Below the pieces are notes generated by a model. The model was not told the DNA's origin. It was given only the letters and a program-made list of their open reading frames with translations, and made no database searches. Below, piece by piece: positions 4,534-32,307 of a stretch of 42,440 nt of DNA; the stretch's first letter is position 1, and each line of letters opens with the position of its first letter. The stretch lies in the NCBI GenBank assembly GCA_038153405.1, contig JAYOYH010000038.1, positions 1 to 42,440 of the forward strand, given 5' to 3'. Position numbers and translations under genes: made by a program. The stretch comes from Gemmatimonadota bacterium (GTDB taxonomy: Bacteria; Latescibacterota; UBA2968; UBA8231).

Positions 4534-5631
4534 TCAATACTTCTGCTGCACGCAGTGAATCGCCGCCAGCACCGCATCGTCGCTGACGTCGTCGTAGATA
4601 TCTACCCGTCCAATCGCCTCGGCCAGAATATAGCGCACCGTACCGTCTACGCGCTTCTTATCCGCTCTCGTGCGCTCGAGGATGTCGCCGGCGGCAACTG
4701 CAGCCAGCCCCTGCGGCACGCCTAGGCGCTCCCACAGCGCATCGTGCCGCGCCCGCTCTTGGGTGGGCAACACGCCGCGCTGGGCCGCAATTTGTCCAAC
4801 GGCCAGCGCGCCCAAGATAACGGCCTCGCCGTGGCGGTACCGCTTGTAGTTGGTCGCCGCCTCTATGGCGTGACCGATCGTGTGGCCGTAGTTGAGAATG
4901 GCGCGCAGTCCCCCCTCTTTTTCGTCGGCACTCACTACGGAAGCCTTGATATCGGCGTTGCGCGCAATGAGCCAGTCTAGCGCATCGGCGTCGATACGCA
5001 TGTCGACGATGTCCTCGACGCAATCTTCCAAAAAGGCAAAGAGCTCGGGGTCGCGAATGATGCCGTGTTTGACGACTTCGGCCATGCCCGCGACCAATTC
5101 GTCGCGCGGCAGCGAGCGCAGCGTATCGGTGTCGATAAAAACCAGTTTGGGCTGATGAAAGGCGCCAATGAGGTTTTTTCCCAGTGCGTGATTGACACCC
5201 GTCTTGCCGCCAATGCTGGAATCCACCTGCGCGACGATGGTCGTTGGCACCTGCACGCAGGGCACCCCGCGCAAATAGCACGCGGCGACAAAGCCCGCCA
5301 TATCGCCAACGATGCCGCCACCCAACGCCAAGACCCAGGCACCTCGATCTAAGCCCGCTTCAATAAGCCGAGCAAAAATGCCTTCGGCACCGCTCAGGTT
5401 CTTGTGCTGCTCACCGCCGGGATATACGACTTCGAGCACGGCAAAACCGGCACCAGCCAAACTCTCCGCAACGGGCTGCAGATAGTGGGTAGCGACCCGT
5501 TCGTCGGTAATCAGCGCCACCTGCCGGCCCAAGCCCAGCGCCTGGCACGCCTGGCCAACGGAGTGCAGCACGCCGTGCCCCACGCAGATTTCGTACTGCG
5601 CCCCTTCAGTCCGTACGGTTGCGCTCCTCAC
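4534..5631 (-). CDS. aroB: 3-dehydroquinate synthase
   Basis: GGGIVGDMAGF, QVDSSIGGKTGVN, GKNLIGAFHQP, LNYGHTIGHAIE; GTG start inferred. Confidence 0.95.
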   Translation of the reverse strand: MRSATVRTEGAQYEICVGHGVLHSVGQACQALGLGRQVALITDERVATHYLQPVAESLAGAGFAVLEVVYPGGEQHKNLSGAEGIFARLIEAGLDRGAWVLALGGGIVGDMAGFVAACYLRGVPCVQVPTTIVAQVDSSIGGKTGVNHALGKNLIGAFHQPKLVFIDTDTLRSLPRDELVAGMAEVVKHGIIRDPELFAFLEDCVEDIVDMRIDADALDWLIARNADIKASVVSADEKEGGLRAILNYGHTIGHAIEAATNYKRYRHGEAVILGALAVGQIAAQRGVLPTQERARHDALWERLGVPQGLAAVAAGDILERTRADKKRVDGTVRYILAEAIGRVDIYDDVSDDAVLAAIHCVQQKY

Positions 5632-6154
5632 TCCAATGCTCCAATAAGTCGATGAGTTTGTCCGCCGTCTGCTCAGGGGTAACCCCCTGGCTGGACAGCA
5701 TTTTAATATGCGCCTGATCGTAATAGGGCGCGCGTTCCGACAGCATTTGTTCAATCCTGGCGCGCTTGCCCGCCTCGTCCAGCCCCGACAGCAGTGGTCT
5801 ATCGTCGCGGCGACTAACGCGTTCGATAATGGTATCGATATCGGCCTCTAAGCAAACGAGGACACCCGCGCGTCGCACCGCCTGCAAATTGCGATTATGA
5901 ACGACGGCTCCTCCTCCCAGCGAAATTACCGCACCGCCGCGCCCACAGGCTGCTAGCACGCTTTCGTGTTCTAACTGGCGAAAGTGCGCTTCGCCCTCAT
6001 CGGCAAAGATCGATGAGATGGACTTGCCGGCCCGCACTTCGACCATTTCGTCCGTGTCTAGAAATTCGCGCCCCAAACGCCAAGCGAGAAAACCGCCGAC
6101 TTTGCTCTTACCCACTCCCATAAAGCCGGTCAGGAATATGGGACCTGTGAGCAT
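5606..6154 (-). CDS. aroK: shikimate kinase
   Basis: GFMGVGKS Walker A, DTD, GEAHFR, SLGGG, RPLL, R.PYY. Confidence 0.95.
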   Translation of the reverse strand: MLTGPIFLTGFMGVGKSKVGGFLAWRLGREFLDTDEMVEVRAGKSISSIFADEGEAHFRQLEHESVLAACGRGGAVISLGGGAVVHNRNLQAVRRAGVLVCLEADIDTIIERVSRRDDRPLLSGLDEAGKRARIEQMLSERAPYYDQAHIKMLSSQGVTPEQTADKLIDLLEHWSEERNRTD

Positions 6155-6324
6155 CAGCTGGCCTTCTTATCCGCACCGCGACGCATGCGCTTCTCCTCAT
6201 AGCACGCTTCGCAATTCCACAGCGGAGGTTTATTAAACGCATTATAGCGATCGTCTAATACATCGCGGCGCAGGTGGTCTACCTCAGTGCCACAGGTATC
6301 GCAGCGCATTTTCTTCTTTGCCAT
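6154..6324 (-). CDS. 56-aa putative zinc-finger small protein (MAKKKMRCDTCGTEVDHLRRDVLDDRYNAFNKPPLWNCEACYEEKRMRRGADKKAS)
   Basis: fills the argS-aroK gap exactly; two CxxC pairs; stop overlaps the aroK ATG (TGATG); below the ORF-track length cutoff. Confidence 0.8.
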   Translation of the reverse strand: MAKKKMRCDTCGTEVDHLRRDVLDDRYNAFNKPPLWNCEACYEEKRMRRGADKKAS

Positions 6325-6327
6325 TTC

Positions 6328-8061
6328 TCACATCCGTTCTACGGTGCCGATGCCCAATAAGCCGAGGCCGCGCGAAATCACTTTTGCCGTCAAGCTGCAC
6401 AGTTGCAAACGGCTATTGCGCACCGGGTCTTCGGCGCGCAGCACCGGACAGGTCTCGTAAAACTTCATGTACAATTCGGCCAACTCATAGAGGTAGTTGC
6501 ACAGGGCGTTCGGATAGCACTCGCGCACGACGGCCTCTACGACTTCGCCAAACTGCACGATCTTGACGGCCAGCGCGCGCTCGGCTGGTTCGCCAATTGC
6601 GATCGCACCCGTCAGCGCAGACTCATCCAGCTCAGCGCGGCGAAAAATGCTCTTCACCCTCGCGTACGAGTACTGCAGGTACGGCGCCGTATTCCCTTCA
6701 AAGGAGAGCATCTTATCCCAGTTGAAAATGTAGTCCGTCGTTCGATTGAGCGATAGGTCGGCGTATTTAACACTGCCTATTCCGACGACGCGGGCAATTT
6801 CGCGACGCTCCTCTTCGCTCAGCTGCGGATTCTTCTCACCGACCAACGCAAAGGCGCGTTCTTCGGCTTCGCTCAGCAGGTCCATCAGCTTGACGGTTCC
6901 CCCCGTACGCGTCTTGAACGGCTTGCCGTCATCGCCGAGCATAGTGCCAAAAGGGTGGTGTTCGAGTGCACATGAATCCGGTGCGTAACCGGCTGCGCGC
7001 GATACGGCAAATACCTGGCGCAGGTGCAACATCTGTCGCGCGTCGACGATGTACAACACGCGATCGGCCCCCAGCGCGCCGGCGCGATAGCGCACGGCGG
7101 AAAGATCGGTCGTCGCATAGAGATATCCACCATCGGATTTTTGCACGATCACCGGCGCGATTTCGCCGTCTTTGCCCTTGAATTCTTCGAGAAATACGCA
7201 CTGCGCACCGTCCGACTCACGCAACAGCCCCTTGTCGCGCAGGTCGCCAACAACCTGGGACAAGTCGTCATTGTAGGCGCTCTCGGCGCGCACGTCCTCG
7301 CGCCCCAGCGTTACGTCCAGCGTTTCGTATACCTCTTCGCAGTGGCGCAGAGACTCATCGATAAAGCGCTGCCACATTGCCCTGACGTGCTCGTCGCCGC
7401 CCTGTAGCTTTACGACATACTCGCGCGCCGTATTGGCGAACTCCTCATCGCTGTCGAACAATCTGCGTGCCGACTGATAAAAGCCCTCCAAATCAACTAG
7501 CTCCGACGAGGGGTCTTCTCCGGCCGAATCCAAGCGATCCATATAGGCAATGAGCATGCCAAACTGCGTGCCCCAGTCGCCAACGTGATTGTGCCGCACG
7601 ACCTCGTGCCCGCAAAATTCCAACGCGCGTGCGATGGCGTCTCCGATGATGGTGCTGCGCAAGTGCCCAACGTGCATCTCTTTGGCAAGGTTGGGATGCG
7701 AATAATCGATCACGACTTTGTGCAGCGGCTGCGCCAGCGGAACGCCGAGCCGCTCATCCGCCAGCGCGGTGTTGAGATGATCATTTAACCACGCCGACTT
7801 GAGCTTCACGTTGATAAAGCCCGGCCCAGCAATATCCACCGACTCGGCCACGTCGCTCAGGTCGAGATGTTCCAGGACGGCAGCGGCCAGCGCGCGCGGA
7901 TTCTTTTTGAGCCCTTTAGCGACGGCCATGACGCCGTTGGCCTGATAGTCGCCAAATTCCGGGCGCGTCGCCGACCCAACCAACGCCTTGCTACCGACCG
8001 GGGCACCTGCTGCGACCAGCGCGGCGGCGATGCGATCCTCTAAGTGCTCTTTAATGGCCAT
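6328..8061 (-). CDS. argS: arginine--tRNA ligase
   Basis: FGDYQAN, AGPGFIN, PNLAKEMHVGHLRS (HIGH-type), GDWGTQFG, GNTAPYLQY, DALR anticodon domain. Confidence 0.97.
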   Translation of the reverse strand: MAIKEHLEDRIAAALVAAGAPVGSKALVGSATRPEFGDYQANGVMAVAKGLKKNPRALAAAVLEHLDLSDVAESVDIAGPGFINVKLKSAWLNDHLNTALADERLGVPLAQPLHKVVIDYSHPNLAKEMHVGHLRSTIIGDAIARALEFCGHEVVRHNHVGDWGTQFGMLIAYMDRLDSAGEDPSSELVDLEGFYQSARRLFDSDEEFANTAREYVVKLQGGDEHVRAMWQRFIDESLRHCEEVYETLDVTLGREDVRAESAYNDDLSQVVGDLRDKGLLRESDGAQCVFLEEFKGKDGEIAPVIVQKSDGGYLYATTDLSAVRYRAGALGADRVLYIVDARQMLHLRQVFAVSRAAGYAPDSCALEHHPFGTMLGDDGKPFKTRTGGTVKLMDLLSEAEERAFALVGEKNPQLSEEERREIARVVGIGSVKYADLSLNRTTDYIFNWDKMLSFEGNTAPYLQYSYARVKSIFRRAELDESALTGAIAIGEPAERALAVKIVQFGEVVEAVVRECYPNALCNYLYELAELYMKFYETCPVLRAEDPVRNSRLQLCSLTAKVISRGLGLLGIGTVERM

Positions 8062-8902
8062 CCTTAACCCGTTCTAGCGCGGCGGCTACCATGTGGTCGA
8101 CCGGCGGCCGGATACCCGTCCATAGTTCAAAGGAGCGCGCTCCCTGCCAAGCGAGCATGCCCAACCCGTTGATGGACCGAGCTCCCACTGCTTCGGCCTG
8201 CTGCATCAGGCGCGTGTTTAGCGGCTTGTATACGATATCAGCGACGAGTAGATCTGCGTGTAAAACCGATGCGTCAACCAGCGGCGATGCATCGGCGTGC
8301 GGATGCATGCCAACCGATGTGGCGTTGATCAGCAAACCCACATCCCCTATCTCATTTGAGTCCATCGTTCCCACCCGCACCTTTCCGCTGCGATCCAGAT
8401 CGCCGGCCAGCGCTTCGGCTTTCGATAGCGTGCGATTGAGCAACAGAACGCGCTCGACCTGCGCACACTGCAGCAGGGCATACAGGATAGCGCGCGCAGC
8501 GCCACCGGCACCGAGCAGCGCGACGTTCGACGGCAGCTCTTCCATGCCGCCATCGCGCCTCAAACTTTCCATAATGCCAAAAGCATCGGTATTATAGCCC
8601 ACCAGTTTGCCCTGCCGATTGACGATCGTATTGACCGCGCCAATGGCTACGGCCTCTTCCGAAACTTCGTCAATATGGCTCATGACGGCTCGCTTGTGCG
8701 GCACCGTCACGTTGAGGCCGGCCATATCCAGCGCGCGCATTCCATCTATGGCACGGCCCAGGCCGTCTGACCGCACGTGAAAGGCTACGTAGGCGTAGTC
8801 TATGCCCAGCGCAGCAATCGCCGCATTGTGCATGGCCGGCGACGACGTATGACCTATGGGGTCGCCAATTACGCCGAGGATGCGCGTCGTGCCGGAGATC
8901 AA
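8051..8902 (-). CDS. aroE: shikimate dehydrogenase
   Basis: IGDPIGHTSSPAMHN, NVTVPHK, GAVNT, GYNTD, GAGGAARA, NATSVGM, GLGMLAWQG; TTG start inferred. Confidence 0.93.
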   Translation of the reverse strand: MISGTTRILGVIGDPIGHTSSPAMHNAAIAALGIDYAYVAFHVRSDGLGRAIDGMRALDMAGLNVTVPHKRAVMSHIDEVSEEAVAIGAVNTIVNRQGKLVGYNTDAFGIMESLRRDGGMEELPSNVALLGAGGAARAILYALLQCAQVERVLLLNRTLSKAEALAGDLDRSGKVRVGTMDSNEIGDVGLLINATSVGMHPHADASPLVDASVLHADLLVADIVYKPLNTRLMQQAEAVGARSINGLGMLAWQGARSFELWTGIRPPVDHMVAAALERVKDGH

Positions 8903-9039
8903 GCCAGCAGGTCCTCGACGAACTGATCGGCAATCTCGACGGCTTCGCTCCACGATACGTCGTACAACAAGCGAATGACAACCACGCCACCGCAGAACAG
9001 CACCGCGGCGAGCGCGGCCAGGCGCAATAGTGTCCTCAT
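8899..9039 (-). CDS. 46-aa single-pass membrane peptide (MRTLLRLAALAAVLFCGGVVVIRLLYDVSWSEAVEIADQFVEDLLA)
   Basis: ATGA overlap with the aroA-like stop, TTGA overlap with the aroE start, GAAGGAG upstream, hydrophobic N-terminal half. Confidence 0.72.
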   Translation of the reverse strand: MRTLLRLAALAAVLFCGGVVVIRLLYDVSWSEAVEIADQFVEDLLA

Positions 9040-10307
9040 CGTTTCTTCTCCTTCAGCGCAGCGAGCGCCTTGAAAAATTCGGGATGCACTTCCTCTATGC
9101 CCTGCGCATTGTCGACGACCACTTCACCTTCGGCCCACAGGCCCAACAGGGAAAAAGCCCGCGCAAGATGGGCGTCGCCGCGCGCGTCGAGCGACCCTCC
9201 CATCACCGGAAAGCCGCCCTTTATGACAATCCCCTCGGGAAATTCGCCGATGCGCACCTGCAGCGAACGCAGCGATTCAAAGAGATGCTGCACTCGATCA
9301 AATGCGCCCTCGCGCAGTAGCTGCACGTCGCGGATGACGATCTCTCCCGGCACGCGCGTAGCCAATACGGCCAGCAGCGCGACCTGTGCCAGCACGTTTT
9401 CAGCCCGCTGGCCGGCCACGCGCGTGGACTTTAACTCGCTCGGATGAACGTCCAGGTCGCAGGTCTCTTCGCCGTGCTCATTCAGCTTAAGTTCGCCGCC
9501 GATCTGGCGCAGCAAGTCGAGAAAGTGGCGCTGACCGGATCGCACGGCAACGCCCTTTATCACGACGTGCGAACCCTTGAGGACGAGCGCGGGTAGCATA
9601 AATGGGTAGGCCAAGTCCAGATCGCCGGCCACGTCCACATCCAGCGGCTGCACGGCCTGCCCGCCCTGCGTGGAAACGACGTACTCCTCACCGCTACGCC
9701 GCCGTTCGACCACGACCGCGCGCTGGCGCAGGAAGCGCTCCATGCGGTTGCGATTTTTGCTCGACTCGCGCATTTGCGTCACGCCTTCGCAGTAAAGCGA
9801 GGCCACCAGCACGGCGAGCTTATCATCTGCATTTATGTCCAATACTGCGTGTTGCACAGCGCTCGGCTCGCCCTTGCCAATAGCGTACACGCTCCGCGTT
9901 TCGCGCTGCGCCCCCATGCCCATAGCCGCCAGCAGAGACAGGGCACCGTGCGCCCAATCGCCCTCTTCGCCGAGCTGGACCCGAGTTACAAAGCGCTGCC
10001 CGGCGAGAATGGCCAGGAGCAACAGTCCACTCGCGCCCCATCCCTGCACGTCTACTATGTCTCCGGCAGGCGACAGCCCAGCTAGGCCTTTGCCGCGCAC
10101 GACCAGTCCATCGCGCTGCTGTTCGATCTCGACGCCGAGTGTTCGCAGGCACTCGACCACGCGCAGCGCACTGGGCGGCACAAAGCGCACGCGGCTCTCA
10201 CCCTCGGCAATGGCGGCCAGCAGCAGAGCGCGCTCGGCGGGCAGCTGCTCCCCGGGGACGCGCACCTCTCCCAGCACTTTCTTCGTAGGCGTAATAGACT
10301 GGCGCAT
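9036..10307 (-). CDS. AroA (EPSP synthase)-like protein with a degenerate active site
   Basis: GEVRVPG....RALLLAAIAEGES, V.GD, LR....DR, PEFF..L framework typical of AroA; full length; catalytic motifs substituted. Confidence 0.8.
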   Translation of the reverse strand: MRQSITPTKKVLGEVRVPGEQLPAERALLLAAIAEGESRVRFVPPSALRVVECLRTLGVEIEQQRDGLVVRGKGLAGLSPAGDIVDVQGWGASGLLLLAILAGQRFVTRVQLGEEGDWAHGALSLLAAMGMGAQRETRSVYAIGKGEPSAVQHAVLDINADDKLAVLVASLYCEGVTQMRESSKNRNRMERFLRQRAVVVERRRSGEEYVVSTQGGQAVQPLDVDVAGDLDLAYPFMLPALVLKGSHVVIKGVAVRSGQRHFLDLLRQIGGELKLNEHGEETCDLDVHPSELKSTRVAGQRAENVLAQVALLAVLATRVPGEIVIRDVQLLREGAFDRVQHLFESLRSLQVRIGEFPEGIVIKGGFPVMGGSLDARGDAHLARAFSLLGLWAEGEVVVDNAQGIEEVHPEFFKALAALKEKKR

Positions 10308-10319
10308 TATATCAACCGC

Positions 10320-10347
10320 ATGGTATTAGAGTCGCAATAGACGTCAA
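10320..10347 (-). promoter_or_regulatory. putative sigma70 promoter TTGACG-N16-TACCAT for the aroA-like unit
   Basis: hexamers in the AT-rich stretch; -10 ends 12 nt before the ATG, no Shine-Dalgarno. Confidence 0.45.
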
Positions 10348-10507
10348 AATTTGCTGCTGAGCAGCTTTTTTAAAACCGGCGGTAGAGCGGGTTTGAGGGT
10401 TGGTCCGGGAAACGGGCAGGCCCCGCACTCACCATTGCGCGTCGTTTCCCTTTCTGCTCGGCGACGCACACCATCCCTATGCAGTGCACTTGCGCGGCAA
10501 GATCGAT

Positions 10508-11602
10508 TCACGGGCGGCGCGCCACATAGCCAATGCCCTCCAATACCTCCAGCGCCTTTGCTGCCGCTGAATCGCTGTCAAATCCCAAGCGCAGCGTGCC
10601 CCCTTCGCCCTCGCGCACCTTCATTACCTCTATATCGCTGATATTGAGTTCGTGCTGCTGCAGGGCAGCGGCAATTTCAGCAATTACACCGGGGCGATCC
10701 TCTGCCACTACGAGGATCTCGTAGAGGGCGTGAATAAAGCCTTTGGCGTCGCGCGGAATCGAGCTGCGCACGCGATTGGCGTAGGCAAAATCATCGGATA
10801 AACTGCCGTCTTCCAACCGGTCGCGGGCATCCTCCAGCACGGCGATATAGCGATCGATCATGGCCCGCACGCGGTCGGCATTGGTCGCGTAAATATCCCG
10901 CCAAACCGGCGCAAACGGGCTCGAGGCAATGCGCGTCATATCGCGAAATCCGCCGGCGGCCAGCGGCAGAAAGTGGTCGCTCTCTTCGTTGAGTCGCCCG
11001 ACCATCTCCACTAGCGTCGTCGCCATGATCTGCGGCAAATGACTTATCGAAGCCACCGCCTGGTCGTGCGCATCGGCGTCCAACTCCAGCACGCGCGCGC
11101 CCACGCCCCGCAAGAGATCGACTAATGCGTCGTAGCGATCGCGCGGCACCTGCTCGTTCGGCACCAAAATGTAAATGGCGTTCTGGAACAAAAATGGATC
11201 GGCCGCCGTAACGCCCGCCTTTTCCGAGCCGGCCATCGGATGGCCACCGACAAAGTAGGTCTCCGCGCGGAAACACGCCCGAGCGCGCGCAACAATGCTG
11301 CGCTTGGTGCTGCCGACGTCGGTGACCAGCGCGCCATCCGCCACCAGCGAGGCCACTTCCTCCACCTGCTCTAGTATGCGCTGAATCGGCGTGCAGAGGA
11401 AGACGAGGTCGGCGCCGTCGAGCGCGCGCGCCATCTCGCCATAGCTCCACCCCTCGTCGATCACGCCCATATCCAGGGCCGTCTGCACGGTCTCAGGCCG
11501 ACTGACGCCGACGATCTGTCCGGCAAAGCGACCGCGCTTGAGCGCCAGCCCCATAGAGCCACCGATTAGGCCCACTCCGACTAAAACGACTCGATTGAAG
11601 AA
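10508..11602 (-). CDS. tyrA: prephenate/arogenate dehydrogenase with C-terminal ACT domain (start codon unresolved)
   Basis: RVVLVGVGLIGGS Rossmann motif, TDVGSTK, GGHPMAGSE, HD...ASISHLP, AAGGFRDMTRIASS, ACT EDRPGVIA. Confidence 0.9.
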   Translation of the reverse strand, partial: FFNRVVLVGVGLIGGSMGLALKRGRFAGQIVGVSRPETVQTALDMGVIDEGWSYGEMARALDGADLVFLCTPIQRILEQVEEVASLVADGALVTDVGSTKRSIVARARACFRAETYFVGGHPMAGSEKAGVTAADPFLFQNAIYILVPNEQVPRDRYDALVDLLRGVGARVLELDADAHDQAVASISHLPQIMATTLVEMVGRLNEESDHFLPLAAGGFRDMTRIASSPFAPVWRDIYATNADRVRAMIDRYIAVLEDARDRLEDGSLSDDFAYANRVRSSIPRDAKGFIHALYEILVVAEDRPGVIAEIAAALQQHELNISDIEVMKVREGEGGTLRLGFDSDSAAAKALEVLEGIGYVARRP

Positions 11603-11604
11603 GG

Positions 11605-11877
11605 CTAGTCCTCCTCTTCTTCGAGGTGCACCGCCTCGGCTATAATGCGGCGAAAGATTTCCTCAATGGCCACGTTGCGCATCGGTCCCTCGTTGTACTC
11701 TCGCAATTTTTGCAGCAATGCCTTTTCGCGCTCCGGATCGCGGATGGGACGGCCGTGTTCTTTTTTGATGCGGCCGATCGCCAGCGCACAGCGCATGCGC
11801 TCGTTGAGGCGTTCCAGTAGCTCTCTATCGAGCTGATCAATGCGCTCGCGCCACGCGCTGATATCCATATCGCTCAT
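11605..11877 (-). CDS. AroQ-type chorismate mutase
   Basis: WRERIDQLDRELLERLNERM..A..IGRIK, IRDPERE. Confidence 0.9.
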   Translation of the reverse strand: MSDMDISAWRERIDQLDRELLERLNERMRCALAIGRIKKEHGRPIRDPEREKALLQKLREYNEGPMRNVAIEEIFRRIIAEAVHLEEEED

Positions 11878-11878
11878 G

Positions 11879-12862
11879 CTAGCGCAACCCCATGGCCTGT
11901 CGCACATCGCGCATCGTCTCGTCGACAATGGGGCGCAAATACTCGACGCTGCGAGCGAGCACGCCGTCGATGTAGGACGGTTCGGCGCTGATTTCGGCGT
12001 AGCGAGCCTGAATGGGTTCGACCTCCGCCATTACCACGTCGAGCACGCCCTTCTTTAAATCGCCATAGCCCTTGCCGGCAAAGTGCGACTCGATCTCCTC
12101 CTTGCTCTGCCCGCTCAGCGCCCGGTAGATACCCAATAGGTTATTGACCCCCGGACGGTTCTCATCAAAGACGATCTCGGTCTGCGAATCGGTAACGGCA
12201 CGCATGATGGTCTTCTTGATTTTGTTGGGCGGATCGAGCAACTCGACGCTGTGGAACTGCCCCTCCCCCGATTTGGACATCTTTTTGGTCGGATCGTCGA
12301 GCCCCATAATGCGCGCACCCACTTCGCGGATAATTGGCTCGGGTATGGTAAAGACTTCGCCAAATTTGCGATTAAAGCGCTCGGCAATATCGCGCGTTAG
12401 CTCCACGTGCTGCTTCTGGTCTTCGCCCACCGGCACCTCGTGAGCCTGGTAGAGCAGGATGTCAGCTGCCATCAACGTTGGATACGTGAATAGTCCGGTG
12501 CTGACGCGCTCGCGCTGGTCGCCCGCCTTGTCTTTAAACTGGGTCATGCGCTCCAGCCAACCCATCGGCGTAACGCAGTTAAAAAGCCAAGCCAGTTCGG
12601 TGTGTTCGGGCACGTGCGACTGCACGAAAATATGCGCTTTCTCGGGGTCGAGACCGCAGGCGATGTAGAGGCCAACCAACTCGCGCGTGAGCACGCGCAG
12701 CTCTTCGGGGTCGTAGTCGACGGTGATCGCGTGCTGGTCGACTACGCAGAAAATATTCTCGCGCGCGTCTAAATCGGCAACCCAGTTGCGAATCGCGCCG
12801 ATGTAATTGCCAATGTGCAAGCGCGCCGAAGGCTTTACGCCCGAAAAAACCCGTTTCTTCAC
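11879..12862 (-). CDS. trpS: tryptophan--tRNA ligase
   Basis: HIGN, YPTLMAADIL, VPVGEDQKQH, KMSKS. Confidence 0.97.
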   Translation of the reverse strand: MKKRVFSGVKPSARLHIGNYIGAIRNWVADLDARENIFCVVDQHAITVDYDPEELRVLTRELVGLYIACGLDPEKAHIFVQSHVPEHTELAWLFNCVTPMGWLERMTQFKDKAGDQRERVSTGLFTYPTLMAADILLYQAHEVPVGEDQKQHVELTRDIAERFNRKFGEVFTIPEPIIREVGARIMGLDDPTKKMSKSGEGQFHSVELLDPPNKIKKTIMRAVTDSQTEIVFDENRPGVNNLLGIYRALSGQSKEEIESHFAGKGYGDLKKGVLDVVMAEVEPIQARYAEISAEPSYIDGVLARSVEYLRPIVDETMRDVRQAMGLR

Positions 12863-13638
12863 GTGCCTAATAGCTCCCTCACTTTGGCGCCGATATCCCG
12901 CTCGCGCATCAGCGCCTCACCCACTAACACCGCATCGACCCCGGCTTCGGCCAAACGCTCGACGTCTTCGCGGTGATTAATGCCGCTCTCGCTAACGACC
13001 AGTGCCCCCTCAGGCATATTGTCCAACAGTTCGAACGTGGTATCAAGCGTTGTCTTAAAGGTCTTTAAGTCGCGGTTATTGACGCCTATGAGCTGCGCTC
13101 GGGCTGCGGCCGCGCGCGCCAACTCGCTCTGATCATGCACTTCGACGAGCGCGGCCAATTCCAACTCGCCAGCTAGGCCGATGTAGTCGGCCAGTTGGCT
13201 TCCGTCCATGAGGGATACGATCAGCAAAACGGCATCGGCACCCAGCGCCCGCGCCTCGTAGAGCTGGTATTCTTCGACGGTAAAATCCTTGCGCAGCGAC
13301 GGCAGTTGACTGGCGGCACGGGCCGCTTGCAAATAGGCGTCGGACCCTTGAAAATAAGCCTCGTCGGTCAGAACGGAAAGACAGCGCGCACCGTTTTCAG
13401 CATAGGTGGCGGCAATGCGCTCAGGGTCAAAGTCTTGGCGAATCACCCCTTTGGAAGGCGAGGCCTTTTTAACCTCGGCAATCAGCGAAATGCCCTCTTG
13501 GTTAAGCGCGGCCACAAAGTCGGCGGGAGCGGGACTGTCGGCCGCGCGCAGGCGCACGTCCTGCAGACTGTGTCGGCGCTTGCGTTGGGCGACAAATGCG
13601 CGCTTGTACTCGGCGATTTCTTCTAGAATATTTGCCAT
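12859..13638 (-). CDS. trpC: indole-3-glycerol phosphate synthase
   Basis: IAEVKKASPSKG, LSVLTD, LRKDF, GVNNRDL, VSESGI, LVGEALM. Confidence 0.96.
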   Translation of the reverse strand: MANILEEIAEYKRAFVAQRKRRHSLQDVRLRAADSPAPADFVAALNQEGISLIAEVKKASPSKGVIRQDFDPERIAATYAENGARCLSVLTDEAYFQGSDAYLQAARAASQLPSLRKDFTVEEYQLYEARALGADAVLLIVSLMDGSQLADYIGLAGELELAALVEVHDQSELARAAAARAQLIGVNNRDLKTFKTTLDTTFELLDNMPEGALVVSESGINHREDVERLAEAGVDAVLVGEALMRERDIGAKVRELLGT

Positions 13639-14649
13639 CTATGCGTTGCTCAACTCCACCAACTTGTCCAGCGCGGCGCGCGCGGCACCCGATGCAATGG
13701 ATGCGCGCGCCGTTTCGACGCCCTCTTCCAGCGTTTCGGCAAGACCGCCTGCGGCAATAGCCGCTGCCGCGTTGAGCAGCACCACGTCGCGCGGCGCGCC
13801 CTCTTTGCCGTCGAGAACATCGCGCAGGATCTGTGCGTTGGCCGCCGCATCGCCACCCTTTAAGGCGCTGGCATCGACTACCTGCAAACCAACGTCGGCC
13901 GGGCTGATGTCGCGCGTGCTAACCCGCCCATCGCGCAATTCGCTGATGCGCGTTGGTCCCGTCAGCGTGATTTCATCTAATCCATCGCAACCGTGCACGA
14001 CAAAAGCGCGTTCGGAACCCAATTCGCCGAGGACACCGGCAATCTTTTCTGTCAGATCTGCTGCGTACACACCGATTAGTTGGCGCCGAGCGCCGGCCGG
14101 ATTGGTCAGGGGCCCCAGCACGTTAAACACCGTGCGCGTAGCAATTTCGCGGCGCGGCCCAATGGCGTGCCTCATGGCGCCGTGCAGCGCTGGCGCAAAG
14201 AGGAAGCCGATACCGGCCTCGTCGATGCACTGACCGACGCGCTCAGGCGCCACCTCTAAATTAACGCCCAATTCCGCCAATACGTCGGCCGATCCACACT
14301 GGCTCGACATGGCGCGATTGCCGTGCTTGGCGACACCCAAACCCGCTCCGGCCGCGACAAAAGCCACCGTCGTCGAGATATTAAATGTTCCCGAGCCATC
14401 GCCTCCCGTCCCGCAGGTATCCACCAGATCGGTGCGCGCCGTTTTGATCGGCGTGGCTTTCTCGCGCATGACCCGCGCACAGCCGGCAATTTCCTCTACC
14501 GTCTCGCCCTTCATGCGCAGCGCAATGAGAAAAGCGCCGATCTGCGCGTCGGTGGCCTGACCGCTCATGATCAGCTCCATCACTTCGCGCGCACCCTCGC
14601 CGCCGAGATCCTCGCCCGACACCAGCTTCTGAATCGCTTCCCGTATCAT
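13639..14649 (-). CDS. trpD: anthranilate phosphoribosyltransferase
   Basis: DTCGTGGDG, FNIST, KHGNR..SS..GSAD, GPLTNPA, DGLDE. Confidence 0.97.
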   Translation of the reverse strand: MIREAIQKLVSGEDLGGEGAREVMELIMSGQATDAQIGAFLIALRMKGETVEEIAGCARVMREKATPIKTARTDLVDTCGTGGDGSGTFNISTTVAFVAAGAGLGVAKHGNRAMSSQCGSADVLAELGVNLEVAPERVGQCIDEAGIGFLFAPALHGAMRHAIGPRREIATRTVFNVLGPLTNPAGARRQLIGVYAADLTEKIAGVLGELGSERAFVVHGCDGLDEITLTGPTRISELRDGRVSTRDISPADVGLQVVDASALKGGDAAANAQILRDVLDGKEGAPRDVVLLNAAAAIAAGGLAETLEEGVETARASIASGAARAALDKLVELSNA

Positions 14650-14668
14650 AGGTCGCTCCTCTGCGTTG

Positions 14669-15253
14669 CTAAAAAAGCCTGAGAAAGTTGTCCAATAGCG
14701 GCATGCCCGCTTCCGTCAGAATGGACTCGGGGTGGAACTGCACGCCCACAATGGCCAAGCGGCGATGGCTCAGGCCCATAACTAGCCCATCGGCCGTCTC
14801 GGCCGAGACGCGCAGCTCATCCGGCACGCTGTCGCGCGCTACCACCAGCGAGTGATAGCGCATCGCCACAAAGGGATTGGGCAGGCCGGCAAAGAGCGCG
14901 TCGCCATCGTGGTAGATCGCTGCCGTCTTGCCGTGCACGGGCTCCGGCGCACGCACCACGCGAGCCCCAAAAACGCTGGCGATTACCTGCATGCCCAAAC
15001 AGACACCCAACAGGGGGACGCAGCCGGCAAAGGCCCTCGTTACTTCGCGCGCGCGCGCCGCCTGTTCCGGCCTGCCGGGACCAGGCGATAGCACGATGCG
15101 CGCAGGAGCGATTTCCCTGATCTGCTCCAGCGAAACATCGCCGCCTACCACGACCACATCGCCGCCCAACACCTGCAAATACTGCATCAAATTGTAGGTA
15201 AAGGAGTCGTTGTTATCAAGTAGCAACACCTTCTGCACTCGGCTCAACTCCAC
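14669..15253 (-). CDS. stand-alone anthranilate/aminodeoxychorismate synthase glutamine amidotransferase (TrpG/PabA)
   Basis: DNNDSFTYNL, SPGPG, GVCLGMQ, RYHSL, QFHPES. Confidence 0.92.
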   Translation of the reverse strand: MELSRVQKVLLLDNNDSFTYNLMQYLQVLGGDVVVVGGDVSLEQIREIAPARIVLSPGPGRPEQAARAREVTRAFAGCVPLLGVCLGMQVIASVFGARVVRAPEPVHGKTAAIYHDGDALFAGLPNPFVAMRYHSLVVARDSVPDELRVSAETADGLVMGLSHRRLAIVGVQFHPESILTEAGMPLLDNFLRLF

Positions 15254-15406
15254 GCCCTAAAGCAGCCTGTTGGAACAGCGAAAACGGCGCCGATCACCGC
15301 GCACGGCGCCTCGGCACAACCGCTGTGCGCATGGCCTCCACAAACGCATTCAACCATCGATCCGCCAGCTGCGCCGCGCATCGATCGGACGCCTCTACCG
15401 CATCCA

Positions 15407-17548
15407 TCACTTGGCCAACTGCCCAATGACCTGCGCGACCAACTTCAGTCCCCAGTCGCCCTGCAGCGTCAGAATGGATTCCGGGTGAAACTGCACGGCG
15501 GCAGCGGGGTAGCTCTCGTGCGCTATAGCCATGATTACCCCGTCTTCCGTCTCGGCCAGCACCTTAAAGCAGTCGGGCAGCGCTTCGCGTACAGCATAGA
15601 GCGAATGGTAGCGCCCGGCGACGAATTCACTGGGAAAGCCCGCAAAAATGCCTTCGCCCGTGCAGCGCACCGTCGAAGGCTTGCCGTGCATGGGATAGGA
15701 AAGCACGCCCAGCCTTCCGCCGAAGGCCTCGACCATGCCCTGCAAACCTAGACAAACGCCAAATACCGGCAACTGGCGCCGCACGCACGCGCGCACGAGG
15801 TCGGGCACGCCAAACTCCTCGGGCGTGCCCGGTCCCGGCGAGACAAAGACCAGATCGGGTTGCACTTCGTCGAATACGTCGGGCGGAAAGCCGGCGCGCA
15901 CCGTGGTTATTTCGGCGCCCGTCTGGCGCACATAGTCGCCCAGCGTGTGCACAAAGGAGTCGCGGTTGTCGACAAAGAGCACCTTTTTCCCGTGCCCTGT
16001 GCGATCTATCTCGACGCGTCGATCGCCCTGCGCAGGGCGCACGCCGATCACTGCGTTGATAAAGGCCTCGGCTTTTGTACGCGTCTCGCGCTCCTCTTCA
16101 TCGGGCACGGAGTCGCACAGCAGCGTCGCACCGACGCGCACCCGCGCCTCGCCACCCTCTAGGTGGACGGTTCGAATCGTAATTCCCGTATTGATTTGTC
16201 CGTTAAAGCGCAGCATCCCAACGCACCCCCCGTACCAGCGCCGCGCCGAATTTTCTAGCTCCTCGATCTGCTGCATGGCCGCCGGCTTGGGCGCCCCCGT
16301 CAGGGTGACGGCCCACATATGCGAAAGCAGAGCGTCAAAACCATCGCATTCGTCCTTGAGCTCACCTGTTACGTAGTCGACGGTGTGAATGAGTTTGGAA
16401 TACAATTCGATCATCCTGCGCCCTTCGACGCGCACGGACCCAGCTTTGCAAATGCGCGCCTTGTCGTTGCGGTCGACGTCGGTGCACATGGTCAACTCCG
16501 CTTCGTCCTTTTTGGAGTTGAGCAGCGCGCGAATCTGCTCGGCGTCTTCGATGGGCGTGCTGCCGCGGCGAATCGTCCCCGATATCGGACAGGTTTCGAC
16601 GATCTGGTTCTCCACGCGCACGAACATCTCTGGCGATGCCCCCACCAGCTGCTCACCGCCGAGGTTGATGAGAAACTCATAGGGACTAGGATTGGTCGTG
16701 CGAATATTTTCGAATAGATCGCGCGGCGTACCCGCATAGCCCGCACTGAGCACCTGGCTCGGCACGACTTCGAAAAAATCGCCGCGCTGCGTGCCGGCAA
16801 TCACCTTGCGCACCTTGTCGGCATATTCGCCCGGTGCGTGGTCGCAGCGCACATCGCTGGCCACACCGCGCCCGATCTGCACGTCCGGCGTATCGCGCGG
16901 CAGTCCAGCCGTAGACAGATCGCCGCGGCAAAAGTCGTAGGTGTAGCGCAGCGCCTGCTCTTTGCGGTGGTCGACCACGATGAGTTGGTCGGGAATAAAC
17001 AGGTGCAAGTCGGGCTGGTCGGCCGCGCGCTCGTGGCGCAGCTCTATCGGCTCAAATTGGAATACCAGGTCATAACCCATCGCACCATAAAGGCCCAGGT
17101 GTGGCTCATCGTCGGCGCGCATTTGTTCGACCAAGGCGCGCAGCACGCTAAAAATTGTCGGCTGCTTTGAACGCTCCTCTTCGCGGAAGTGAGCCGGCAT
17201 CGGCAGCACGCGACCGCGCAGCTGACCGTCGCCCTCTTCCAGCTGCTCCAGGTGGGGATGTCCCTCGAGGCCCGCGCGCACAATCTGCAGCAGCACGCGG
17301 CCGCGCTCGTTGAGCGGACGAAAGGCAAATTCGCGCTGGCGCGCCTTCAGCTCCAGCGGCGGATTGGCAAATCCGATATCCCAACGGCTGTAGCGCCCCG
17401 GGTATTCGTAGCCGCTGGCAAAAAGTGCTCCGCACCGCCTGTTGAGCATAGCCAACACGTCTTCTAGCGGAGCGTTCAGCACTAACTCTTCCACCGCGCG
17501 CGCGATCGCTACGCCGCCCCTTGTCTCGTATGTCTCCGTCGTTTTCAT
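15407..17548 (-). CDS. trpE: fused anthranilate synthase components I and II
   Basis: SGYEYPGRYSRWD, NPSPY, GASPEMFV, PISGT, MCTDVDRNDK, TGAPK, followed by GATase DSFVHTL/GVCLG/QFHPES. Confidence 0.95.
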   Translation of the reverse strand: MKTTETYETRGGVAIARAVEELVLNAPLEDVLAMLNRRCGALFASGYEYPGRYSRWDIGFANPPLELKARQREFAFRPLNERGRVLLQIVRAGLEGHPHLEQLEEGDGQLRGRVLPMPAHFREEERSKQPTIFSVLRALVEQMRADDEPHLGLYGAMGYDLVFQFEPIELRHERAADQPDLHLFIPDQLIVVDHRKEQALRYTYDFCRGDLSTAGLPRDTPDVQIGRGVASDVRCDHAPGEYADKVRKVIAGTQRGDFFEVVPSQVLSAGYAGTPRDLFENIRTTNPSPYEFLINLGGEQLVGASPEMFVRVENQIVETCPISGTIRRGSTPIEDAEQIRALLNSKKDEAELTMCTDVDRNDKARICKAGSVRVEGRRMIELYSKLIHTVDYVTGELKDECDGFDALLSHMWAVTLTGAPKPAAMQQIEELENSARRWYGGCVGMLRFNGQINTGITIRTVHLEGGEARVRVGATLLCDSVPDEEERETRTKAEAFINAVIGVRPAQGDRRVEIDRTGHGKKVLFVDNRDSFVHTLGDYVRQTGAEITTVRAGFPPDVFDEVQPDLVFVSPGPGTPEEFGVPDLVRACVRRQLPVFGVCLGLQGMVEAFGGRLGVLSYPMHGKPSTVRCTGEGIFAGFPSEFVAGRYHSLYAVREALPDCFKVLAETEDGVIMAIAHESYPAAAVQFHPESILTLQGDWGLKLVAQVIGQLAK

Positions 17549-17824: not shown

Positions 17825-21076
<3,252 letters not shown>

Positions 21077-29480: not shown

Positions 29481-29509
29481 TTGTCGAGGATCAGCTCTTG
29501 TCCTATACT
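29481..29509 (+). promoter_or_regulatory. promoter TTGTCG-N17-TATACT, possibly driving a leaderless mRNA
   Basis: in-frame GTG begins 7 nt after the -10 box; no Shine-Dalgarno. Confidence 0.5.
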
Positions 29510-29515
29510 ACGCGC

Positions 29516-31798
29516 GTGACTGAAGAAGCCCACAACGCGCCCCCCGCGGCGCTCGATCTACTCGCCTCCGACGAACAGATTCAGTTCGCGCTTTCCACGG
29601 ACATCAAACTGGACGGCCTGTACGGTTCGGCTTGGCTATTGGCCACCAACAAGCGCCTGCTGGCCTATAGCCCCGACGGCGGCGGCCCGCCCGATATCGT
29701 CGACCTGCCGCTGAGTGAGATTACCTCTGTTGAAATAGAAGATCTGCACGGCAGCGGCGCTCTCAAGGCGCGCACGGCCGCACGCGGAGCAACCGTCGCC
29801 CTATTTTCCAAAACGCTGGGACCACAATTTGCCGACGTTCCAAAGCAAATTGAAGAGTTAGTACATCAGGCCCGACCCGAAGCGGCCGACGAGCGCATTG
29901 CCCACGGCCGTTTAGAGCGGGGCTTCCACCGCCAGCGGCGCTGCGAACGCTGCAACCAAGTCATTCCCCACCGCCTCGGCGTTTGCCCGGCCTGCCTCGA
30001 AAGCAGCAAGCTGCTGAGACGCTTTCTCAGCTACTCCGCACCCTACTGGCCGCTGGCCTTTGCCAGCCTACTCATCCTGCTTTCGGGCACCTTTATCGGC
30101 CTGACGCCGCCGCTCATGATGCGCACGCTCATCGACGACGTGCTCAAACCCGTCGCCGAAAACGGCAGCAACAGCGGCGTTGTATTGCCTTATTTGGGCG
30201 ACGTCACGGCGTCTTATGCACTCGGCACCCTCGTCGTGCTATTGCTGCTAATCAACGTCCTGCGCAACGTGCTTGGCGCTCTGCGCTCCTACCTGCTATC
30301 GCGCCTTGGCGAGCAGATCACCTACGACCTGCGCGGCGAAGTCTACCGGCATTTGCACCGCCTGTCGCTCAACTTCTACAACGACCGCGACACCGGCCGA
30401 ATCATGGCCAGCGTCACCCAAGACGTGAGCCGCCTGCAGGACTTTCTGAGCGACGGCCTGCAGGAGACGATTCGCAATATCCTGACCATTTTCATCATCG
30501 TTTCCATCTTGTTTTACCTCAATACCAACCTCGCGCTCTACGTGCTACTGCCCGTGCCTTTCATCATCTTTACCACGGTGCGCTTTGGTTCGTATCTAAA
30601 CCAACTATACCGTCCGCTCTTTCGCCGCTGGGCCGGCATTAGCGCACTGCTGTCCGACGTCGTGCCCGGCGTGCGCGTGGTCAAGGCCTTTGCCCAAGAA
30701 GAGCGCGAAGTCAGCAAGTTCGAGCGGCGCAGCCACTCGCTGCTGGAGGGCGAACTGCGCGTCGCCAAAACGCGCAGCATATTCAGTCCGCTGATGGCAT
30801 TTCTGACCTCGCTGGGCACGCTGGTTATCTGGTGGGTCGGCGGCAACAAGGTGCTCGACAGCGTGCTCACGCTGGGCGAATTCGTCGCCTTCACCAGCTA
30901 TATGTGGCAATTTTATGGACCCGTAGAAAGCCTCTGCCGTCTCAACCATCGTTTTCAGCGTGCGGCCACCTCTGCCGAGCGCGTCTTTGAGGTTCTCGAC
31001 AGCCAGCCCGACGTGGCCGATCCGCCCAGCGCGCAGACCATGGCCGAAATCGAAGGGCGCGTGGTATTCGACGACGTCAGCTTCTCTTATGAGGAGGGCA
31101 AACCGGCGCTGCGCAACCTCAGCTTTACGGTAGAACCGGGCGAGATGATCGGTCTGGCGGGCCACTCTGGCGCCGGTAAGTCGACGCTGATCAACCTGAT
31201 TTGCCGCTTCTACGAAATCGAAGAGGGCACCATCTACATCGACGGTATCGACACGCGCACCGTCAGCCTTAAGTCGATGCGCGAGCAGATCGGCGTCGTG
31301 CTGCAGGACCCATTCCTGTTCAACGGCAGCGTCGCCGACAACATCGCCTACGGCAACCCCAGCGCGTCGCTCGAGAAAGTCATCGCAGCGGCCAAGGCGG
31401 CTAACGCGCACGAATTTATCACCAACTTGCCCGACGGCTACGACTCCATCGTCGGCGAGCGCGCCGTGCGCCTATCGGGCGGCGAACGCCAGCGCCTATC
31501 CATAGCCCGCGCCATTCTGCGCGACCCGCGCATTCTCATACTCGACGAAGCTACGGCGAGCATGGATACTGAAACGGAAGCTAAAATTCAGCAGGCGCTT
31601 GCCCGTTTGATCAAAGGGCGCACGACCTTTGCCATTGCACACCGCCTATCGACTCTGCGCAATGCCGACCGACTCTTCATCATTGAGAAAGGCATGCTGC
31701 ACGAACAGGGCACGCACGACGAACTGGTCGCACAAGACGGCATCTACGCCAAACTAGTGCGCATGCAAACGGAAATGAGCCGGATCCGCGCCGTATGA
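29516..31798 (+). CDS. ABC exporter (TMD+NBD) with an N-terminal extension and Zn ribbon
   Basis: GHSGAGKS, LSGGERQR, ILDEAT, IAHRLST; TM domain; CERC..CPAC ahead of the TMD; start could alternatively be 29498. Confidence 0.9.
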   Translation: MTEEAHNAPPAALDLLASDEQIQFALSTDIKLDGLYGSAWLLATNKRLLAYSPDGGGPPDIVDLPLSEITSVEIEDLHGSGALKARTAARGATVALFSKTLGPQFADVPKQIEELVHQARPEAADERIAHGRLERGFHRQRRCERCNQVIPHRLGVCPACLESSKLLRRFLSYSAPYWPLAFASLLILLSGTFIGLTPPLMMRTLIDDVLKPVAENGSNSGVVLPYLGDVTASYALGTLVVLLLLINVLRNVLGALRSYLLSRLGEQITYDLRGEVYRHLHRLSLNFYNDRDTGRIMASVTQDVSRLQDFLSDGLQETIRNILTIFIIVSILFYLNTNLALYVLLPVPFIIFTTVRFGSYLNQLYRPLFRRWAGISALLSDVVPGVRVVKAFAQEEREVSKFERRSHSLLEGELRVAKTRSIFSPLMAFLTSLGTLVIWWVGGNKVLDSVLTLGEFVAFTSYMWQFYGPVESLCRLNHRFQRAATSAERVFEVLDSQPDVADPPSAQTMAEIEGRVVFDDVSFSYEEGKPALRNLSFTVEPGEMIGLAGHSGAGKSTLINLICRFYEIEEGTIYIDGIDTRTVSLKSMREQIGVVLQDPFLFNGSVADNIAYGNPSASLEKVIAAAKAANAHEFITNLPDGYDSIVGERAVRLSGGERQRLSIARAILRDPRILILDEATASMDTETEAKIQQALARLIKGRTTFAIAHRLSTLRNADRLFIIEKGMLHEQGTHDELVAQDGIYAKLVRMQTEMSRIRAV

Positions 31799-32307
31799 GC
31801 GAATTCGTTGAAAACGATTTCGAAGTAGTTATCTTCGACCCAAAGAATATCCATCTTCACATCGACGAATTTGCCGATCTCGTACTCGGTGTTGAGGGAA
31901 GCGAACCCGTGCGCGGCGTGCGTTTGACGCGCTGTTTCCCCATTTCTTCCGGCGATCGTCTTATCGCACTCAATGCGCACGATGGGACTGAACTGGGCCT
32001 CGTGCGCGACGTCAATGAACTCGATTCCGATAGCCAAAAGGCACTGCGCAGCGAACTGTCGCGCTCGTACTTCCGACCACAGATCCAGCGCGTTCTTTCC
32101 GTTACAGAACAATACCACGTGCCGCGTTGGGAAGTCGAGACCGACCGCGGCCCGCGCACCTTTGAAATCCGCAGCAGTCGCCGCGATATGCGCGTGCTGG
32201 CCGCCGGTCGCATTCTCATTCGCGACGCCGACGGCAATCTCTATGAGGTGCTAGACTATCGCCAACTCGATCCGCAGAGCCGCGCGTTAGTCGAAACGCA
32301 AGTCTGA
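31795..32307 (+). CDS. DUF1854 domain protein
   Basis: RCFPIS, ELGLV, EL.RSYF.PQI, WEVETDRG, IRDADG; ATGA-coupled to the ABC gene. Confidence 0.8.
   Translation: MSEFVENDFEVVIFDPKNIHLHIDEFADLVLGVEGSEPVRGVRLTRCFPISSGDRLIALNAHDGTELGLVRDVNELDSDSQKALRSELSRSYFRPQIQRVLSVTEQYHVPRWEVETDRGPRTFEIRSSRRDMRVLAAGRILIRDADGNLYEVLDYRQLDPQSRALVETQV

Follow-up and report, generated by a model that had tools for sequence, protein, structure and literature searches.

The EPSP synthase AroA (EC 2.5.1.19), the target of glyphosate, is treated as a monomeric enzyme with a single function. The EPT/RTPC fold superfamily also includes the RNA-acting RtcA and the non-catalytic Rcl1, an inactive homologue of RNA 3'-phosphate cyclase that works through a protein partner; Rcl1 is a eukaryotic ribosome biogenesis factor and derives from RtcA, not from AroA. 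A regulatory role is known for one MurA paralogue, MurZ of Listeria. In Pseudomonas syringae, an N-terminal deletion of about 200 residues in the AroF part of a TyrA-AroF fusion is coupled with the gain of a stand-alone aroF, according to one passage of Song et al. (2005, PMC1173090); another passage of that article calls the change a C-terminal truncation and marks it as a pseudogene, and the two are inconsistent on which end was lost.

The locus described here lies in a 42,440-nt stretch of DNA (the window) from a Gemmatimonadota bacterium assigned by GTDB to Latescibacterota (GenBank assembly GCA_038153405.1, contig JAYOYH010000038.1). A conserved supraoperon occupies positions 4534-17548 on the reverse strand, with the order trpE(G)-trpG-trpD-trpC-trpS-chorismate mutase-tyrA-dead aroA-small protein-aroE-argS-aroK-aroB. 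The gene called dead aroA is, as originally predicted, an intact open reading frame of 423 aa without stops (9036-10307, reverse strand); it encodes a class II AroA with the EPSP synthase fold. Upstream of it, tyrA (10508-11575, reverse strand; the start is perhaps a few codons further upstream) encodes prephenate dehydrogenase carrying an ACT domain at its C-terminus; downstream lies aroE for shikimate dehydrogenase (8051-8902, reverse strand), for which homologue starts make TTG 8902, rather than 8953, the most likely start. Between dead aroA and aroE is a gene for a predicted membrane protein of 46 aa (8899-9039, reverse strand), whose ATG overlaps the stop of dead aroA (ATGA) and whose stop overlaps the TTG of aroE. 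The original prediction had dead aroA follow chorismate mutase and tyrA and head an aroE-aroK-aroB unit; the first part stands, but argS lies between aroE and aroK, and the 46-aa ORF precedes aroE. Directly upstream of dead aroA, a weak sigma-70-like site (10320-10347, reverse strand, 9 of 12 matches) was found once where 0.2 were expected, which is no evidence of function.

Several other features of the window were recorded. The anthranilate synthase gene is a TrpE-TrpG fusion (15407-17548, reverse strand) followed by a stand-alone second trpG (14669-15253, reverse strand), and other genomes of family f1 have an unfused trpE of ~530 aa at this place. Relatives carry two types of argS at the position of the window's gene (6328-8061, reverse strand), with ~70% and ~35% identity to it, which suggests replacement in place. 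Judged by eye, positions 17825-21076 hold a catalase-peroxidase (katG-like) gene and, divergent from it, an OxyR-like LysR regulator, positions 29498-32307 (forward strand) an ABC transporter that is much extended at its N-terminus, with a 170-aa gene behind it, and the second half of the window many sulfatase-like and PhyH-like dioxygenase genes.

The Pfam EPSP_synthase family (PF00275) covers residues 6-415 of the dead AroA (E 4e-42), and the AlphaFold model (pLDDT 95.3) has the two-lobe EPT fold over its full length, both in agreement with the predicted framework. The best Foldseek matches of the model are class II AroA, and the closest class II AroA by sequence is 3rmt of Bacillus halodurans (E 4e-46); the class I and class II labels are presumptive throughout, being taken from the nearest solved enzymes and from characteristic motifs. 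Against the AroA equivalog model TIGR01356 the protein scored 143 bits, below the cut-off of 287, and an active orthologue from family f6 scored 417 bits. The motif losses first read by eye were borne out by HMMER alignments to the solved class II enzymes 3rmt and 3tr1, relative to which PGDKS has become PGEQL, NSGTT(T/A)R has become GWGASGLL, SAQVK has become NADDK, IDE has become LAQ, (V/R)(K/V)KE(T/S)(N/D)R has become REGAFDR and DHR has become DAH. Of the 18 E. coli shikimate/PEP-site residues given in Table S25 of PMC9137983, 14 were mapped via an active orthologue of the same phylum, with A95, S170, Y200 and K411 left unmapped. Eleven of the 14 are replaced (K22, S23, N94, T97, R124, Q171, D313, K340, E341, H385 and R386), and the equivalents of R27, G96 and R344 are kept. 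The lack of the MurA loop noted at the outset was likewise confirmed: there is no Cys/Asp loop, and the TIGR01072 score is 33 bits against a cut-off of 393.

The erosion of the site extends to relatives. Of 19 active-site positions, 1-7 are kept in 93 full-length dead forms of families f1-f4 and 0-2 in 10 forms of the f10 type, compared with 16-19 in eight full-length active orthologues. The replaced cleft positions are variable among dead forms, with no new set of residues fixed.

The chemistry itself has another source in the genome, as the original prediction had anticipated. Four PF00275 genes were found, namely two murA genes over cut-off, dead aroA and an intact aroA on contig C2 (136917-138218, reverse strand) that scored 350 bits with TIGR01356, above the cut-off. 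This aroA has all motifs and is closer to class I enzymes, and it likely performs the EPSP synthase reaction in place of the dead gene. Its type, with the motifs PPSSKNYTTR, RLKECDR and HHDHR, is unusual and reaches no better than E 2e-52 against solved enzymes; most f1 genomes share it at 63-93% identity, and it lies outside any shikimate operon. The genome also encodes chorismate synthase, DAHP synthase, prephenate dehydratase and dehydroquinase, and its pathway is whole without the dead gene. Of 24 f1 relatives, 23 carry a second AroA-like gene (of the C2 type in 16 whole and two partial cases and of another type in five, one of them weak); in the exception, G012, a 90% complete genome, none was found. 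All 16 of the f2-f4 relatives have one (six sequences were read, with motifs intact), as do all 10 f10 genomes, where it is of a third type among the matches listed. The replacement AroA genes thus belong to three different types across the sub-lineages.

A survey of 111 genomes of the phylum, in which the matches were in part read individually, placed the dead gene in 83 of 86 same-class relatives (39/40 in f1, 27/27 in f2, 1/2 in f3 and 16/17 in f4), and a more divergent dead form in nine of the 10 genomes of family f10. The 80 loci compared below carry mostly Candidatus Latescibacterota or Gemmatimonadetes/Gemmatimonadota MAG labels, and one is labelled Handelsmanbacteria. In eight genomes of f5, f6, f9, f11 and f12 the class II AroA of this lineage is active, and its gene lies beside tyrA in f5 and f6 and away from it in f9, f11 and f12. 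In the five genomes of f7, f8 and f13 that were searched the dead gene was not found; the only genes of this kind that turned up were murA, in all five, and a class I-like aroA, in four. The dead gene has been cleanly deleted in G077 and G063, was not found in G026, and in one locus (L194:7877-8480, reverse strand) is apparently frameshifted and further truncated, with ~160-174 aa in frame, which may reflect decay or an assembly error. Proteins of the dead type are often annotated as 3-phosphoshikimate 1-carboxyvinyltransferase, an annotation that would mislead pathway reconstruction and the classification of glyphosate sensitivity. Two short metatranscriptome contigs from two estuary samples of one study are identical to positions 9424-9662 and 9895-10107; they are not counted as expression because DNA carry-over is possible.

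Selection was assessed as dN/dS by the Nei-Gojobori method in pairs with dS of 0.1-0.7, which are not independent of one another. The window's gene has values of 0.13-0.15 to its three nearest relatives, which speaks for purifying selection rather than decay. Across the full forms the median was 0.25 and the maximum 0.38 (289 pairs among 39 of 62 sequences), and in close full-length pairs the two lobes are equally constrained (0.25 for the N-terminal and 0.245 for the C-terminal lobe). Simple decay, which had been considered at the outset and would give dN/dS near 1 with frequent disruption, does not describe these data, one frameshifted form having been seen. Among nine neighbours tyrA had the lowest values (0.09-0.11); the others ranged up to 0.22 (aroK), apart from chorismate mutase at 0.41. 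A dead gene that changes faster than most of its neighbours (0.25 against 0.09-0.22), that can be cleanly deleted or frameshifted, and whose downstream genes are translationally coupled, might be a passive relic in slow decay, whose reading frame and fold persist only because misfolding, and polarity on those genes, would otherwise follow. However, clean deletion, though possible, is rare, since the class relatives retain the gene over divergence down to 26-35% identity, and two further observations set out below, the family-specific invariant arginines R260 and R267, which folding constraint alone would not be expected to produce, and the continued selection on half-length forms, also stand against this explanation, which is quite improbable.

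With residues lost, fold kept, an intact aroA elsewhere and purifying selection in orthologues, the maintained pseudoenzyme of the original prediction is upheld. By sequence criteria the dead AroA is a pseudoenzyme that has the fold of the enzyme, lacks its catalytic residues and is maintained by selection; it falls outside the EPSP synthase equivalog and is neither a MurA nor a decaying pseudogene.

Half-length forms of 215-227 aa bear on what is being maintained. Their carriers are family f3 and, within f2, genus g19 (20 of 20). They consist of residues ~1-19 fused straight to residues ~225 to the end, the whole N-terminal lobe being gone. In the window's gene, the excised lobe corresponds to residues ~20-226 (9630-10250, reverse strand), which are under purifying selection in full forms, and the lobe that is kept, together with residues 1-19, corresponds to residues ~227-423 (9036-9629, reverse strand). 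The N-terminal lobe is delimited here by the boundaries usual for the fold, a span also covered by 1p88 and 3ti2, entries for the N-terminal domain in isolation. In the f2 half forms the join falls between two similar PG(D/N)P motifs. The model of a half form (pLDDT 96.7) is a single AroA lobe with a TM score of ~0.8 to class II AroA, and half forms have a median dN/dS of 0.19 and a maximum of 0.33 (77 pairs among 15 of 16 sequences). Half-length PF00275 clusters were also seen in the ESM Atlas, where they may be fragments. The f2 half forms nest among full-length f2 and f4 forms, the f3 half forms branch apart, and a single origin of half forms was rejected (p-AU 0.002; 26 rows, C-terminal 200 residues), which indicates that the N-terminal lobe has been lost independently in two lineages.

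The two losses of the whole N-terminal domain speak against a reaction in the cleft between the domains. An enzyme with a new activity, or a sensor of small molecules, that used this cleft would be in keeping with full-length forms that retain both lobes under selection and model confidently, but the replaced cleft positions are variable, with no new set fixed, and the cleft is absent from two lineages, so this alternative is very improbable. The new activity and the ligand sensor named in the original prediction are weakened accordingly, as the function outlasts both the N-terminal domain and the cleft.

Conservation points to the lobe that is kept. Columns conserved at ≥90% number 26 of 197 in the C-terminal lobe compared with 11 of 207 in the N-terminal lobe, where the most conserved columns are Gly, Leu, Ala and Ser. 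Every near-invariant polar residue lies in the C-terminal lobe, including all charged conserved columns (R260, R267, R296, R326, D327, R332, D337, R347 and E355); the lobe also carries T295 beside R296 and G354 beside E355. R260 is present in 99% of the f1-f4 dead forms and 90% of f10-type forms, and is not among the three commonest residues at that column in 81 outgroup class II enzymes. Marks of the lineage are R260, R/K267, T295-R/K296 and G354-[ED]-hydrophobic, and most of them are already present in the active orthologues of the phylum: R/K267 and G354 are common to these and the dead forms, and part of the conserved patch is present in the active AroAs of five other families. The f10 forms keep only R260, R/K267 and the G354 hairpin and do not keep T295/R296, R326 and R347. 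The invariant residues G321, D327, L331, R332, D337, G359 and G364 are widespread among class II enzymes generally and may have a structural role. The C-terminal lobe probably has a binding surface, and likely works as a protein-binding module; as the gene has been cleanly deleted in two genomes (G077 and G063), the module would be non-essential.

Catalysis has been lost more than once. When the best 150 representatives at 50% identity, 147 of them new, were screened for six motifs, the new ones comprised 30 dead and 117 active-like sequences. Dead or degenerate forms outside the Latescibacterota set include the P0261 cluster, members of which are named Ca. Zixiibacteriota; this cluster groups with active enzymes that have the same hairpin as well as a basic insert at the hinge (support 89/83). 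A common origin of all 16 dead rows was rejected (p-AU 0.016; 32 rows, LG+G4, long branches present), which indicates that catalysis has been lost again in the Zixibacteria-labelled group. The hairpin motif G354-[EQD] occurs in 29 of the 30 dead but 4 of the 117 active-like representatives, a contrast that is inflated because the search profile carried the motif. The basic helical insert before the hinge, ELERRL[RA]K-like, is common to active and dead members of this AroA subfamily (seen in L176, L178, L180, L182-L207, P0261, P0266, P0267 and P0302), and the window's protein has only VERRR at this place.

Repeated loss of catalysis, whatever the neighbouring genes, in a subfamily with an xGE[LFY]xDG hairpin and a basic hinge insert (ELERRL) would fit a partner outside the operon, either another protein or an RNA such as the operon leader or a tRNA. 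Six near-invariant arginines in the C-terminal lobe and the aminoacyl-tRNA synthetase genes within the operon are consistent with such a partner. The lobe is not basic overall, however (27 K/R and 28 D/E), and among the best Foldseek matches listed only AroA and MurA appear, with none of the RNA-acting relatives; a partner of this kind seems unlikely.

Within the operon, the usual order in relatives is tyrA, dead aroA, 46-aa membrane protein gene and aroE, almost without exception. In the set of 80 loci, tyrA is directly upstream of the dead gene in 75 of 77, the small ORF immediately follows it in 78 of 80 (the two misses were called without a profile recheck), and aroE is within 800 bases in 75 of 77. 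Where the order is broken, the dead gene stays with tyrA, both when aroE splits off (L139) and when the small protein gene and aroE split off together (G057), TyrA being the only neighbour never parted from the dead form in these two rearrangements. In L139 (2511-10048), the insertion after dead aroA and the small protein gene that splits off aroE consists of large AAA/STAND-like ATPase genes (395 aa and 1812 aa), judged by eye to be possibly a defence island. As further variants of the locus, L218 and L245 (G043) have two tandem aroE genes directly after tyrA with aroA absent between, and in L244 (G041:C335:1813-1953) a short aroE remnant lies behind active aroA and the small protein gene, a whole aroE not being found in G041, a 92% complete genome.

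Tentatively, TyrA is regarded as the favoured candidate partner of the dead AroA C-terminal lobe, in view of its place next to the dead gene, the two rearrangements, its low dN/dS, which marks the strongest constraint in the operon, and the P. syringae case. DAHP synthase, ArgS, AroK, AroC and the replacement AroA were discounted, since they vary in type or position where the dead gene does not, and AroK, AroE and AroB, which had been proposed as pull-down partners, are less well supported than TyrA and the 46-aa protein. Genomes without the dead gene conserve TyrA to about the same degree (45-50% identity to the window's) as genomes with it (52-55%), which counts against this partner. Few TyrA columns separate the two groups of genomes, no more than in AroE or AroB, and such columns as a trace of interaction are explained equally well by ancestry. 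Inter-protein mutual information gave the same background rate of high scores with TyrA, AroE, AroB and AroK (65-84 paired rows, ~40 effective). No TyrA-AroA fusion of the PRK14806 type was present among 298 AroA-like ORFs in the fetched loci; an apparent AroE fusion (P0020) has garbled stretches and small-protein read-through that suggest an assembly frameshift, and long open frames in five genomes are not fusions. Because tyrA-aroA adjacency is ancient and common, the link to TyrA may be inherited gene order only.

The other neighbour to be weighed is the 46-aa protein, which has a hydrophobic helix followed by the acidic motif SWxE[SA]x[ED]IADxFxxDLL. It matches no Pfam or NCBIfam family and only unnamed clusters in the ESM Atlas. 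The gene was identified in 172 of 185 loci, one of these being a false pick, has a median dN/dS of 0.30 (423 pairs, wide spread) and, by profile, follows eight of nine f10 dead forms and the active forms of f5, f6 and f11. It is unlinked in f12 and was not found in G026 or in the f7, f8 and f9 genomes searched. The protein in f10 has Cys-rich tails (CPVCC, KCPCCK). This is a previously unannotated family of membrane proteins with conservation over most of the phylum. Acidic residues conserved in the 46-aa protein (E32, D38 and D43) complement the conserved arginines of the dead AroA, the small gene is translationally coupled to the dead gene and stays with it when aroE moves (L139, L278 and L132), and G026 and the f7 and f8 genomes searched yielded neither of the two. 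Bound to the acidic helix, the C-terminal lobe might accordingly be one of two parts of a module tethered to the membrane, which could, for instance, anchor enzymes of the pathway or feed quinone synthesis. Against this, the 46-aa gene persists where the AroA gene is gone (G077, G063 and G053), moves together with aroE in G057, and did not turn up in two f9 genomes, ~90% complete, that have an active orthologue; moreover, positive residues at its N-terminus could, by the positive-inside rule, place the acidic helix in the periplasm. Such a module is unlikely.

The reading preferred here, plausible though short of probable, is that the dead AroA is a class II EPSP synthase with a lost active site, kept by selection for a C-terminal lobe that would act as a binding module, most likely on TyrA. 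In the proposed course of events, the resident AroA of the lineage would have had a second surface on its C-terminal lobe, formed by the R260/R267 helix together with a strand-hairpin set (T295-R296, R326, R347 and G354-E355-aromatic). Unrelated aroA genes of at least three types would then have reached different sub-lineages and made catalysis redundant, after which the active site may have eroded and, in two lineages, the dispensable N-terminal lobe been deleted in frame between two similar PG(D) motifs. The binding lobe alone would be retained, as a feature that predates the loss of catalysis and outlives it when a foreign aroA takes over, and it would likely serve to stabilise TyrA or to adjust it at the prephenate branch, perhaps jointly with the membrane protein whose translation is coupled. 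A wider proposal, speculative and rather doubtful, is that the class II EPSP synthases of a whole subfamily moonlight, with the C-terminal lobe as an ancient docking module that couples TyrA, and the small membrane anchor, into a complex of the aromatic pathway. If true, this would explain the tyrA-aroA gene order, the repeated TyrA-AroA fusions and the survival of dead or one-lobed forms each time a foreign aroA replaces the chemistry. The series of active, dead full-length and one-lobe forms, in which losses recurred independently, would separate a hidden second function from catalysis and map it to ~200 residues, and the natural half protein of 217 aa is a ready reagent for finding the partner.

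No description of the dead AroA family was found in the literature covered, which largely excludes subscription journals. Compared with class II EPSP synthases (3rmt, Coxiella 3tr1/3slh, S. pneumoniae 1rf4 and CP4 2gg4), the dead AroA shares the two-lobe fold at 24-28% identity, has the canonical position after tyrA and branches with the active class II enzymes of the phylum, but it differs in that 11 of the 14 mapped residues are replaced, its TIGR01356 score is under the cut-off, the genome has another aroA and there are one-lobe relatives. MurA and MurZ enolpyruvyl transferases belong to the same fold superfamily, but the dead AroA is without their Cys/Asp loop and the genome has two ordinary murA genes. 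Rcl1, which resembles it in being inactive, is not among the best Foldseek matches listed for the half form. The nearest published case is the TyrA-AroF protein of P. syringae, in which, in the account given in those passages of PMC1173090, a remnant of AroF was kept on TyrA after a similar deletion and replacement. That remnant is fused and described there for one species, whereas the dead AroA is free-standing and under purifying selection across a class, in both full and half forms.
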